Shown here: positions 11,199 to 13,406 of the stretch, in pieces
Layout of the letters: the number at the start of each line of letters is the position of its first letter
Numbering within the stretch: the stretch's first letter is position 1
Assembly: GCF_026248825.1 (NCBI RefSeq)
Contig: NZ_CP110973.1
Location: forward strand, 2,111,668 to 2,175,667
DNA length: 64,000 nucleotides
Direction of reading: 5' to 3'
Source: Larkinella insperata
GTDB taxonomy: Bacteria > Bacteroidota > Bacteroidia > Cytophagales > Spirosomataceae
Position numbers and translations under genes: made by a program
The notes under the pieces: model-generated
Told to the model about the DNA's origin: nothing
Seen by the model: the letters and a program-made list of their open reading frames with translations, nothing else
The model's database searches: none

Positions 11199-13406
11199 TC
11201 ACGGTAGGGCGAAGGCAATGTATGAACCTCCCGGCTTATGACCATTTTTTACGCCACCGGCGGCAATAACGACATACTGTTTACCAGCTACTTCGTAGGT
11301 AATCGGGGTAGCAAACCCGCCCGCCGGAAGCTGGTATTCCCAGACGATTTTGCCCGTTTTTTTGTCGAACGCCCGGATGCGCTCGTCTTTGGTTCCGGCG
11401 ATGAATAGCAGGCCACCCGCCGTAACAATGGGGCCGCCGTAGTTTTCGGTGCCCGTAACCGGAATGCCTTTTTTGGTCAGTTCGGGAAATTCGCCCAGCG
11501 GCACCCGCCAAAGATATTCGCCGGTGTTCAGATCGATGGCGTTGAGCGTGCCCCAGGGTGGCTTGACGGCCGGATAACCGTTCGGGTCGAAAAAGCGGGT
11601 GTAACCGTTGTTGATGTACGGCGGAATGTACGGAAACTCGGTGTTTTTATCGGTTTGAGTCAGAACCGGGGCGTTGTGCTGATCCTGGCTTTCGGCGGGT
11701 TTGGGTTCGGGCGCTTTGGTATCGGCGTTGAGCAAATACCGAATCAGCGTAAAGCGGTCCTGGTCGGAAATGTGCTGGAACGACGGCATTCGGCCCCGGC
11801 CGGATTTCAGCACGGCGTTGATTTCGGGAGCGGAAAGCCGTTTGCCAATATCCACCAGGCTGGGGTACTCCTGCCCGCTGCCCTTGCGGTCGGGGCCGTG
11901 GCAGGCCATGCAGTTCGCCTGGTAGATGGTTTTTCCCTTGGAGGCAATTTCGGCGTTTCGGGTTGCCAGATCCGACATTTTCAGGTCCCAGACCATTTCG
12001 TTGGAGTTCTGGTACAGAATACCGTCCGGGTCCGACGCATTACCCCCCCATTCGGCCCCCCCGCCGATCCCGAAAAACAGCGTTCCTTCCAGACTGGGCG
12101 GCATAAATTTGTCACCGGAGCGCGTCTTCAAAAACCGCTCTTTAACGAATTTGTGCGCTTCGGGCGTCAGGTTCGTAATGTCGGCTTCGGTAAAGACCTG
12201 CCGGGCAAAGGGCGCGGGTTTGATCGGAAATTTCTGCGTGGGCCACGGCACTTCGCCGGGTAGGGCGGGCGAGGTAGGCACCTGGCGTTCTTCCACCGGA
12301 AACAGTGATTCGCCCGTATCGCGGTTCAGCACGTACACCAACCCGTCTTTGGTTGTTTGGGCGACAGCGTCCACCAGGCGGCCGTTGTGCTTCACCGTCA
12401 TCAGGTTGGGCGGGCAGGGAATGTCGCGGTCCCAGAGGTCGTGGTGAATGGTCTGGTAAAACCACTTCATCTTGCCGGTTTCCGCGTCCAGCGCCAAGAT
12501 GCAGTCAGAATACAGATTTTGGCCCGCGCGAATACCGCCGTAAAAATCGACAGATGGGGAGCCGGTTCCAAAATAGACGGTTTTCCGCTTTTCGTCGAGG
12601 ACCATGCCGGCCCAGTTGTTGGCACCCCCGATGCGCTTATAGGCGTCTTTCGGCCAGGTTTCGTAACCCGGTTCGCCCGGTTGCGGAATGGTGTGGAAGA
12701 CCCACAGCACCTTGCCCGTGCGAATGTCGAATCCCCGCACGTGGCCCGGAGCCGCGTCGCCCTGCTCCGAAACCGTCGAGCCCATCACCAGAATGTCCTT
12801 GTAAATCACGCCCGGGGTGGTAGACGTTACGGACACTTTGCTCATGTCCCGCTTCGATTCATCATCCAATCCCTGCCGCAAATCCACTTCGCCGTTTTTG
12901 CCAAACGAGGCCACGGGTTCGCCCGTGAGGGCGTTCAGGGCATAAAGCGTTGAACCAGCCGTATACAGGATGCGTTTGTCTGCCCCGTTTTCCCAGTACA
13001 TGACGCCCCGGCTCTGGTTGAAGCGCGGAGATTTGTCTTTGAACGGATTGAAAATCCAGCGTTGCTGGCCGGTTGCCGCATCCAGCGCAAATACCTTCAG
13101 CATGGGCGTGGTGCCGTACAGCATACCATTGATGACGATGGGCTGGCACTGGATTTCGAGTTGCTGACCGGATGGCCCGTCTGCTCCGGCGGCATTATAC
13201 GACCAGGCCACTTTCAGGTTTTTGACGTTTTGGAGATTGATCTGCTTGAGGGACGAATAACGGTTTCCGGCCTGATTACCCCCGTAAGCCGGCCAGTTTC
13301 GTCCGCCCGGCTGATCCCGAACGCCCGTTCCCGGCAGGGGAGCGATGGACGAACTGCTTCCCATCAGGAGCCACAGCCCGACTACGATTGGTTGCGCATA
13401 TTTCAT
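11199..13406 (-). CDS. PQQ-dependent beta-propeller dehydrogenase with an internal c-type cytochrome domain (quinohaemoprotein)
   Basis: 735 aa with a signal peptide. PQQ propeller repeats sit at both ends (NLKVAWSY... and ...[34 protein letters not shown]). A CxxCH haem-binding motif (CMACH, residues 499-503) lies in an about 80-aa cytochrome c-like insert before the last blades. Confidence 0.7.
   Translation of the reverse strand: [735 protein letters not shown]

Follow-up and report, generated by a model that had tools for sequence, protein, structure and literature searches.

A cytochrome c domain inside the PQQ propeller of a predicted sugar dehydrogenase from Larkinella insperata

Two kinds of pyrroloquinoline quinone (PQQ) dehydrogenases provide the closest described relatives of the protein presented here. 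The type II alcohol dehydrogenases (ADHs), such as those of Comamonas testosteroni (1KB0) and Pseudomonas putida (1KV9 and 1YIQ), are soluble periplasmic enzymes that combine, in a single chain, an eight-bladed PQQ propeller and one class I haem c domain, the latter placed after the last blade, at the C terminus. The membrane-bound glucose dehydrogenase (mGDH) of Escherichia coli, Gcd, is a periplasmic sugar oxidase that possesses a five-helix N-terminal membrane anchor and reduces ubiquinone. In a 64,000-nucleotide stretch of the Larkinella insperata genome (RefSeq assembly GCF_026248825.1, contig NZ_CP110973.1, positions 2,111,668 to 2,175,667 of the forward strand), hereafter the window, whose own numbering is used for all coordinates below, we studied a gene (Table 1) whose product carries a haem c domain within its propeller and not at its end. 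The sequence is 100% identical to that of an L. insperata protein retrieved in our homologue search, and a first-pass annotation made from the DNA alone had drawn attention to it as a quinohaemoprotein with an inserted cytochrome.

Three lines of evidence establish the split arrangement. Pfam PF01011 (PQQ) matches the protein with a total of 624.7 bits (cutoff, 26.7) in two stretches, the first of which covers residues 38-484 and ends at position 451 of the 595 positions of the profile, having started at position 1. It is followed by matches to two cytochrome c families, PF13442 (Cytochrome_CBB3; residues 488-558, E = 6.2e-13, 49.3 bits versus a cutoff of 27) and PF00034 (residues 489-558, E = 4.1e-9, 38.1 bits versus a cutoff of 21.3), and then by a PQQ_2 match at residues 619-718, C-terminal to the cytochrome domain. 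Hence, the propeller is not complete before the CxxCH motif, and the motif lies within a cytochrome c family match. The alignment to E. coli Gcd is broken at the same place, into a block of 34% identity (residues 36-461 versus Gcd 166-600) and a block of 46% identity (residues 605-735 versus Gcd 656-792), which are separated by 143 residues in the query and by 55 in Gcd, a net insertion of about 88 residues. Finally, an AlphaFold2 (AF2) model, built on a 57-sequence alignment and with haem left out (mean predicted local distance difference test score, pLDDT, 79.8; predicted template modelling score, pTM, 0.83), shows beta strands through residue 479, a helical domain at residues 480-558 (pLDDT of 69 to 89) and strands that resume from residue 597. 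The linker that leads back to the propeller has a pLDDT below 50 over residues 564-587, and its columns are gap-rich and variable in length in a more diverse alignment (A2).

Together, these results confirm that a class I cytochrome c domain and a linker of about 30 residues split an eight-bladed PQQ propeller in two (residues 36-479 and 597-735), with blades on both sides of the insert, as the first-pass annotation had claimed. The 34-residue peptide that it had cited as belonging to the last blades was located at residues 685-718, past the haem region. Its placement of the CMACH motif was right in residues (499-503), while the nucleotide positions given for it, about 11895-11910, have to be corrected to 11898-11912. 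Its view that the protein is secreted agrees with the hydrophobic, signal-like N terminus. Comparison of N termini revealed no lipobox cysteine in this protein nor in its Larkinella relatives. Of note, a cysteine is found within residues 11-35 in 31 of the 57 aligned homologues, many times in a lipobox-like LLGSC; such homologues are probably lipoproteins, and even close relatives of the dehydrogenase thus seem not to be tethered to the membrane in the same way.

The position of the insert within the fold can be specified further. In methanol dehydrogenase (MDH), each of blades W1 to W7 has an AxDxxTGxxxW motif at its strands C and D, and seven motifs of this type start at residues 105, 153, 222, 302, 357, 621 and 677 of our protein. 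In blade 6, strands C and D correspond to TLNAID...EYLW, and strands A and B were assigned to a 19-residue stretch by analogy with blade 4 (NNW-AGMVLD-...-TVYFGTG). Based on the blade motifs and on the order of the strands in the AF2 model, we place the cytochrome in the connection between strands B and C of W6, where it would sit at the tip of a two-stranded extension (residues 472-479 and about 597-606). In a propeller, the B-C and D-A loops share one face. Since the D-A loop that joins blade 4 to blade 5 carries the catalytic Asp326, and since Asn467 and Asn469, which align with a PQQ-contact Asn of mGDH and MDH, are found 3-5 residues ahead of the extension, topology predicts that the insert emerges on the PQQ face, beside the cofactor pocket. 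Given this insertion point, it is reasonable to expect that the geometry of electron transfer from PQQ to haem differs from that of the type II enzymes.

The inserted domain has the hallmarks of a class I cytochrome. C499, C502 and H503 of the CMACH motif are invariant in 57/57 homologues (61-100% identity to the query), as are M540 and P541, and the equivalent of M540 is also invariant in the diverse alignment. We predict from these residues that haem c is covalently attached via CMACH, with Met540 as its axial partner. When the insert was searched alone against the PDB, the closest matches were the haem domains of CcoP from cbb3 oxidases (E = 3e-10), the MP motif of which aligns with the GRGxMP motif of the insert, together with actinobacterial QcrC; XoxG was also matched (E = 8.5e-5). 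None of the matches at E ≤ 0.01 was a cytochrome domain of a type II ADH. In a PDB search with the whole sequence, residues 656-717 matched the propeller of 1KB0, at its residues 480-540, and the haem region gives only a noise-level match to the C-terminal cytochrome of that enzyme. The proximity to CcoP and QcrC and the absence of type II domains from the matches suggest that the haem domain was acquired separately and is not a transposed type II domain.

The presence of a haem does not by itself make it an intramolecular relay. It could instead serve in electron transfer between subunits, in the docking of a partner or in regulation, or be a structural remnant, the electrons of PQQ going to a separate acceptor. 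A long linker that is disordered in the model and a haem domain modelled with a lower pLDDT than the propeller would both be compatible with such roles. On the other hand, the haem ligands show no substitution in any of the phyla, even where identity drops to about 34-38%, the insert always occupies one and the same point, the base of the insert is 3-10 residues from the Asn that aligns with a PQQ-contact residue, and the membrane anchor of mGDH is absent. In addition, to our knowledge, all characterised quinohaemoproteins, namely the type II and type III ADHs, use haem c as the first acceptor. We therefore consider a haem without a relay function improbable, and we favour a transfer of electrons from PQQ to the haem of the same chain.

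The propeller itself points to sugar dehydrogenases. Its best NCBIfam model is TIGR03074 (membrane-bound glucose/quinate/shikimate dehydrogenase), with 468.8 bits for a cutoff of 832.65; the match covers profile positions 150-625 and leaves the transmembrane region of the model unmatched. The model of the methanol/ethanol family, TIGR03075, scores 266 bits, also below its cutoff (480.05). Likewise, Gcd residues 1-165, which form the membrane anchor, have no counterpart in our protein, in which only about 35 residues precede the propeller. Judged from TIGR03074 and from the Gcd alignment, the propeller is a member of the mGDH clade and not of the alcohol dehydrogenase clade, and the type II ADHs to which the first-pass annotation had compared the protein are not the appropriate frame. 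In a structure search, the model matched the fold of 30 PQQ dehydrogenase structures (E = 4e-32 to 6e-26). All PDB fold matches are alcohol, methanol or sorbose dehydrogenases with about 20% identity, and the PDB contains no entry of the mGDH clade and none with an internal cytochrome.

Studies of mGDH and MDH have assigned roles to a catalytic Asp, to a Trp that stacks on PQQ, to Glu and Asp residues that hold the metal and to a Lys or Arg near PQQ. The corresponding residues of our protein are invariant in all 57 homologues: D326 (Gcd Asp466), K353 (Lys493), W265 (Trp404), E214 (Asp354) and D674 (Asp730); the Asn pair N467/N469 is kept in 56. Mutagenesis of mGDH has assigned the role of catalytic base to Asp466 of Gcd. 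This conservation predicts that the dehydrogenase binds PQQ and a metal. A DxD motif like that formed by Asp326 and Asp328 was proposed to permit the binding of lanthanides in the GDH clade (PMC11996626); however, E. coli Gcd also has this motif, so the metal may be divalent or a lanthanide. Cysteines are found only at residues 87, 302, 331, 499 and 502, which excludes the vicinal Cys-Cys pair, forming a disulphide over PQQ, that typifies the alcohol and methanol dehydrogenases. The position of Gcd His775, a residue implicated in the interaction with ubiquinone, is occupied by V, A, T, G or S in the homologues, a variability that would fit with a loss of quinone coupling.

These data also bear on the NCBI product name of the protein, "outer membrane protein assembly factor BamB family protein". 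According to this name, to weak matches with BamB models and to a 253-bit match with the "acido-empty-quinoprotein" model, the protein might be a BamB-like or "empty" propeller that carries a cytochrome and not a PQQ enzyme at all. Yet PF01011 scores 624.7 bits, whereas the BamB models match only residues 619-703, far under their cutoffs; TM-scores are 0.36-0.38 for BamB structures versus 0.55-0.58 for PQQ dehydrogenases; and the catalytic Asp, the Lys, the Trp floor and the metal-site Glu are all invariant. We reject the BamB annotation on the basis of the domain score, the fold scores and the active-site residues, and we see hardly any chance that the propeller is empty. The same RefSeq naming affects many dehydrogenases of this kind, which are misannotated.

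The internal-cytochrome architecture is widespread. A word-indexed homologue search returned 7,992 proteins at E ≤ 1e-10, and the best 120 of them are 703-800 residues long and all contain PF01011 and PF13442. A query that spans the junctions (residues 430-660) was compared to 1.84 billion cluster representatives and retrieved 108 of them at E ≤ 1e-30 and 1,161 at E ≤ 1e-10, many of the matches running unbroken through propeller, cytochrome and propeller. CxxCH is at the same place in 24/24 distant full-length representatives (34-51% identity in the segment). We also scanned loci in one genome per GTDB species and report counts for the best 80 of at least 600 loci, all 80 of which span the whole junction segment. 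They belong to Bacteroidota (Cytophagales, Chitinophagales, Parapedobacter and Saprospiraceae), to Balneolaceae and Rhodohalobacter, to Verrucomicrobiota (Limisphaerales, Opitutaceae and Chthoniobacteraceae), to Acidobacteriota (Terriglobia and Bryobacterales), and to Haliangiales (Myxococcota), Porticoccaceae (Gammaproteobacteria) and Neomarinimicrobiota. The architecture is thus not rare but common in sequence space and present in several phyla; the term "unusual" in the first-pass annotation is justified with respect to characterised enzymes only. Several genomes contain two or three copies, and the second copy of L. insperata shares 66% identity with the first. The copies of Dyadobacter sp. 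CY261 are dispersed (loci L013, L020 and L042), and tandem duplicates occur in metagenome-assembled genomes of Haliangiales (L044, 2352-6948) and Saprospiraceae (L068, 4888-9086).

The dehydrogenase gene is part of a string of genes on the same strand, separated by short gaps, that extends from a gene for an extracytoplasmic function (ECF) sigma factor to a gene for a GDSL hydrolase (Table 1). The string has the composition of a polysaccharide utilisation locus (PUL) with an adjacent SusC/SusD pair and dedicated regulator genes, and the same order was found in loci L002 and L004; the same PUL exists in Spirosoma endbachense and Dyadobacter subterraneus. The terminator-like hairpin beyond the last gene is the probable end of the transcription unit, bearing in mind that hairpins in the window are overall no more numerous than in shuffled sequences.

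Table 1. Coordinates of the dehydrogenase gene, of its parts and of the genes of the same string
Feature	Coordinates	Strand	Remarks
Dehydrogenase gene and its parts
PQQ/haem c quinohaemoprotein dehydrogenase gene (predicted)	11199..13406	(-)	735 aa, ATG start; stop codon 11199-11201
N-terminal signal-like hydrophobic segment, ~residues 1-22	13341..13406	(-)	From sequence; AF2 helix 6-17, low pLDDT over 1-34
Propeller part 1, residues 36-479	11970..13301	(-)	W1-W5, W6 strands A+B, first hairpin strand (472-479)
Asp326 codon	12429..12431	(-)	Aligns with Gcd Asp466; motif WDRD, Asp328 also invariant
Inserted class I cytochrome c domain, residues ~480-562	11721..11969	(-)	Pfam; helical in AF2 model
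CMACH haem c attachment motif, residues 499-503	11898..11912	(-)	Sole CxxCH in protein
Met540 codon (GRGRMP), likely sixth haem ligand	11787..11789	(-)	Invariant M540 and P541
Return linker, residues ~563-596	11619..11720	(-)	Low confidence, poor conservation
Propeller part 2, residues 597-735	11202..11618	(-)	Second hairpin strand, W6 strands C+D, then W7, W8
Other features of the string
ECF-type sigma factor	21289..21897	(-)	Pfam Sigma70_r2, r4_2
FecR-type anti-sigma factor	19955..21088	(-)	Pfam FecR, FecR_C
SusC-type TonB-dependent transporter, N-terminal STN signalling domain	16293..19742	(-)	Pfam TonB_dep_Rec, Plug, CarbopepD_reg_2, STN
SusD-family outer-membrane glycan-binding lipoprotein	14519..16264	(-)	Pfam SusD_RagB, SusD-like_3
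Secreted 328-aa protein, predicted galactose mutarotase (aldose 1-epimerase) fold	13446..14432	(-)	39 nt upstream of dehydrogenase gene; structure prediction
ManD-subgroup (enolase superfamily) sugar-acid dehydratase	9748..11124	(-)	Pfam MR_MLE_N/C; twin-arginine leader
Twin-arginine (Tat)-signal metallophosphoesterase, purple acid phosphatase-like	8417..9658	(-)	Pfam Metallophos, Pur_ac_phosph_N, TAT_signal
GDSL/SGNH hydrolase with TPR, last gene of string	6500..8404	(-)	Pfam Lipase_GDSL_2
Terminator-like hairpin, 18-bp stem	6307..6348	(-)	Consensus scan

The two genes that flank the dehydrogenase gene encode proteins that, like the dehydrogenase itself, bear secretion signals. Downstream, the product of the ManD-like gene belongs to the mandelate racemase/muconate lactonizing enzyme (MR/MLE) group and matches PDB 3t6c over residues 55-458 (E = 3.9e-139), as well as 4ihc and 3tw9. 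It has an N-terminal extension of about 52 residues with the twin-arginine signal SRRETLKK, in support of the earlier claim that the adjoining MR/MLE enzyme is exported by the twin-arginine translocation (Tat) system. The solved chains of the ManD subgroup align only from query residue 49-58 onwards and have no counterpart of this leader. A twin-arginine leader is found in 20 of 23 ManD partner open reading frames (ORFs) of related loci, the 3 exceptions being truncated or over-extended ORF calls, and this leader implies that the sugar acid would be dehydrated in the periplasm. A distant second MR/MLE gene in Spirosoma linguale (L007, 1076-2323) also has a leader, SRRAAI. Upstream, the 328-residue protein matched nothing in Pfam, even at E ≤ 10, in NCBIfam or in a phmmer search of the PDB, and its fold was recognised by structure prediction. 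H66, H177, H194, D200, D260 and E297 of this protein are invariant.

Related loci preserve these associations to various extents. A ManD-like gene is beside the dehydrogenase gene or within a few kb of it in L002 to L007 (L002, L003, L004, L005, L006 and L007), including the locus of the second L. insperata copy (L003), which lies outside any PUL and has a Tat-ManD gene of its own downstream. In S. linguale, the order is two MR/MLE genes, SusC, SusD, a 327-residue protein, the dehydrogenase, 2-keto-3-deoxy-galactonate (KDGal) kinase, 2-keto-3-deoxy-6-phosphogluconate (KDPG) aldolase and a major facilitator superfamily transporter, and in two Dyadobacter loci the KDGal kinase (DGOK) and the KDPG aldolase follow the dehydrogenase. 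Within 6 kb of the dehydrogenase gene, a ManD-like gene was found in 19 of the best 80 loci, a mutarotase-fold gene in 15 and the kinase with the aldolase in 2; all of these linkages fall in the 48 most similar loci, from Bacteroidota. Neighbours in the distant phyla are varied and often related to carbohydrates, such as a PL4 lyase, a beta-helix glycosidase-like protein and a DeoC/LacD aldolase. As for the end of the string, the GDSL hydrolase is kept downstream in Larkinella, Spirosoma and Dyadobacter loci, and the metallophosphoesterase, although inside the string, is kept with the module in just 1 of the 80 loci.

Based on these observations, we propose, with moderate confidence, that the protein is a periplasmic aldose dehydrogenase of the mGDH clade, in which electrons move from PQQ to the built-in haem and from there to respiratory cytochromes, and that an oxidative sugar-acid pathway starts with its reaction. 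The free aldose would cross the outer membrane through the SusC/SusD pair, and the adjacent mutarotase-fold protein would probably convert it to the anomer preferred by the dehydrogenase. PQQ would oxidise it at C1, Asp326 acting as the catalytic base, and Glu214 and the DxD motif would bind the metal, either a divalent ion or a lanthanide. PQQH2 would then give its two electrons one at a time to the His/Met-ligated haem c of the insert, which would reduce a periplasmic or oxidase-bound cytochrome c and, through it, a terminal oxidase; the haem domain would in this way stand in functionally for the transmembrane anchor and the ubiquinone site of mGDH. The ManD-family enzyme, once exported by Tat, would dehydrate the resulting aldonolactone or aldonate in the periplasm; the product, a 2-keto-3-deoxy sugar acid, would be imported and cleaved via a kinase and an aldolase in a De Ley-Doudoroff-type route. 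Overall, the enzyme probably allows the bacteria to oxidise sugars outside the cytoplasm and to feed the electrons into respiration.

A haem c acceptor would make sense in the phyla that host the protein, which are largely menaquinone-only. The potential of the menaquinone couple, about -75 mV, is too low for PQQH2 (about +90 mV) to serve as its donor, and c-type cytochromes are suitable acceptors; on this general ground, a haem c may be the acceptor of choice. Among the ORFs of the window that we scanned, no pqq genes and no further c-type cytochromes were seen. Bacteroidota that encode the PQQ importer PqqU lack pqq biosynthesis genes, and the scavenging of PQQ is documented (PMC12124388). 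Many of the menaquinone-using bacteria that possess the dehydrogenase may likewise scavenge PQQ rather than make it.

Oxidation at C1 of an aldose is favoured by the recurrent partners in the subfamily of the enzyme, the dehydratase and the mutarotase-fold protein, joined in some genomes by the KDGal kinase and the KDPG aldolase. Alternatively, the same architecture could support another chemistry, the oxidation of a non-anomeric hydroxyl (from a glycoside to a 3-keto-glycoside) or of a cyclitol or polyol, the reaction of the quinate, shikimate and glycerol dehydrogenases in this clade, in which case ManD would act on a different intermediate. TIGR03074 spans glucose, quinate and shikimate dehydrogenases, and its score is under the cutoff. 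Moreover, some distant members of the family are fused to other domains: a 3-keto-disaccharide hydrolase (DUF1080) forms the C terminus of P0186 and P0249, of which P0249 also contains CBM4_9, P0210 has an N-terminal ThuA, and P0166 has an N-terminal xylose-isomerase-like TIM barrel and Laminin_G_3. In a Porticoccaceae locus, GFO/IDH/MocA and sugar-isomerase TIM-barrel genes adjoin the dehydrogenase gene, and the equivalent of Gcd His262 is variable. The fusions suggest that some distant clades act in keto-glycoside pathways, and, being related to carbohydrates, they also count in favour of a sugar as the substrate in general. Nevertheless, an aldonate-type dehydratase, a mutarotase-fold partner and, in some genomes, a KDGal kinase and a KDPG aldolase fit only with the oxidation of a free aldose at C1, and the gene string of L. 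insperata has no DUF1080, ThuA or TIM-barrel gene. We thus regard the oxidation of another position as unlikely for the protein described here, and we retain aldose oxidation at C1.

Several observations weigh against our proposal. The Gcd His262 position, which governs substrate specificity, varies in the 57-sequence alignment, making glucose unlikely as the default sugar, and the DUF1080 and ThuA fusions hint that a non-anomeric hydroxyl is oxidised in some clades. The mutarotase assignment of the 328-residue protein is one of predicted fold only, its comparison to E. coli GalM by hhalign being not significant, and the ManD-like protein scores below the equivalog cutoffs (NF043051, 399.6 versus 550; PRK15072, 390.5 versus 430). 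The string (6500-21897) encodes no glycoside hydrolase or lyase, and no lactonase, kinase or aldolase was found in the 64-kb window. The cytochrome domain was modelled in the absence of haem, with a moderate pLDDT (69-89) that is lower than that of the propeller. Finally, we found no biochemical characterisation of any family member in the literature.

A full-text literature search, which omits most subscription journals, yielded no description of a cytochrome inside a PQQ propeller, nor of the insertion point and of a periplasmic mutarotase-dehydrogenase-ManD module. The gene itself is not a discovery, as thousands of family members are already in public databases, with names that are generic or wrong. 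A broader and more speculative view, which we find doubtful as a whole, is that these proteins form a single-origin, phylum-spanning class of GDH-type quinohaemoproteins, that the cytochrome in blade 6 is an answer to the thermodynamics of menaquinone-only respiration, that with Tat-ManD and the mutarotase they constitute the periplasmic first steps of a sugar-acid pathway that feeds respiration, and that the use of lanthanides might follow from the invariant DxD motif.

If our proposal is true, it has several implications. Among quinohaemoproteins, the internal haem would make the protein a fourth architectural type, and it would be the first example from the sugar-oxidising mGDH clade. The proposal would also account for the way in which abundant Bacteroidota, Verrucomicrobiota and Acidobacteria of soil and aquatic environments draw respiratory energy from sugars prior to import, and it would define a periplasmic mutarotase-dehydrogenase-dehydratase module, the members of which are now mislabelled "BamB family" and "hypothetical protein". 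A natural single chain that joins a PQQ sugar dehydrogenase to haem c would also be what biosensor engineers build by fusion to obtain direct electron transfer, and they would have thousands of variants from nature at hand.

Other parts of the window deserve mention. A separate PUL converges on the string from the opposite strand (1-6272, +) and comprises the tail of a SusC gene (about 115-795), a SusD gene (815-2293), a PF10091 "putative glucoamylase" gene (2341-3981) and a GH3 gene (3978-6272). PF10091 is the family of GH144 endo-beta-1,2-glucanases, and the PUL may be a beta-1,2-glucan locus. We rejected the inclusion of its GH3 and PF10091 genes in the dehydrogenase locus because of their opposite strand, the convergent orientation and a strong hairpin between the two units. 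At 22497-29827 (+), the genes for a TamB/AsmA-like protein of 1,670 residues and, directly after it, for an Omp85/POTRA protein of 773 residues overlap by 4 nt; the pair looks like a TAM-type translocation and assembly module. At 29846-34206, genes for an RtcB RNA ligase (29846-31408, -) and an SPFH/Band 7 protein (31443-32558, -) diverge from that for a WYL-WCX regulator (33100-34206, +) and may form an RNA-repair unit under WYL control. The GC content falls from about 0.55 to 0.45-0.49 across 34000-52500; we considered a foreign island and rejected it, as this is the EF-G/ribosomal protein/SecY/Map/RpoA region. Lastly, the gene at 55407-58358 (-) encodes a 983-residue hybrid sensor (7TMR-DISM, HisKA/HATPase, receiver and AraC helix-turn-helix) of the two-component type typical of carbohydrate sensing in Bacteroidota.

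How does the L. insperata protein compare to known systems? With the type II ADHs, it shares the combination of a PQQ propeller and one class I haem c in a single chain and, presumably by analogy, the logic of intramolecular transfer from PQQ to haem; these enzymes are its best PDB matches by sequence and among the best by fold. Foldseek gives a TMq of 0.58 for 1kb0 versus 0.57 for the haem-less PedH, but its alignments are sequential and hence blind to the placement of the haem domain. The differences are nevertheless clear: the haem domain is inside blade 6, with about 140 propeller residues following it, the propeller is not of the TIGR03075 clade, the Cys-Cys pair is lacking and the predicted substrate is an aldose and not an alcohol. 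The membrane-associated type III ADH of acetic acid bacteria (Gluconobacter, 8GY2) likewise has a dehydrogenase subunit composed of a PQQ propeller and a haem c, and it matches the fold of our model with E = 5.6e-31, yet it is a multi-subunit enzyme with a trihaem cytochrome subunit, its haem domain is C-terminal and it reduces ubiquinone.

PQQ sugar dehydrogenases wired to a built-in cytochrome are exemplified by the eukaryotic pyranose dehydrogenase CcPDH (AA12) of Coprinopsis cinerea and by engineered fusions of soluble glucose dehydrogenase (sGDH) with cytochromes (PMC4332668). In contrast to our protein, CcPDH is six-bladed and not homologous to the eight-bladed clade, and its haem b domain is attached end to end at the N terminus; in the engineered fusions, the domains are joined at a terminus and not internally. 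Some six-bladed PQQ proteins are also described with haem domains (bioRxiv 10.64898/2026.07.10.737718). Within the GDH clade, groups devoid of transmembrane segments ("GDH group 1b/2") exist but are unconfirmed, and cytochromes are not mentioned for them (PMC11996626).

At the level of the pathway, the proposed steps follow the order of De Ley-Doudoroff-type routes (aldose dehydrogenase, sugar-acid dehydratase, kinase for the 2-keto-3-deoxy sugar acid and aldolase), and S. linguale clusters all genes of this order (L007). Unlike in those routes, the signal peptide and the Tat signal predict a periplasmic location for the first two steps, the first step would be linked to respiration via PQQ and haem instead of NAD(P)+, and the module is inside a SusC/SusD locus.

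The nearest propeller sequence remains that of E. coli mGDH, with which the protein shares the catalytic Asp (WDxD), the Lys, the Trp floor and the equivalent of Asp730 and, as we predict, the function of a periplasmic sugar oxidase. It departs from mGDH by the missing five-helix anchor, by the additional residues in blade 6 and by its predicted acceptor, haem c followed by cytochrome c in place of ubiquinone. The better comparison is therefore an mGDH minus its membrane anchor plus a haem domain, and not a rearranged type II ADH. The protein differs from type II ADHs in its propeller family, in the lack of Cys-Cys and in the position of its haem, and from mGDH in the lack of an anchor and in a TIGR03074 score below the cutoff. 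It is best described as a member of a distinct subfamily within the mGDH clade, so far uncharacterised, whose proteins carry a cytochrome c internally.

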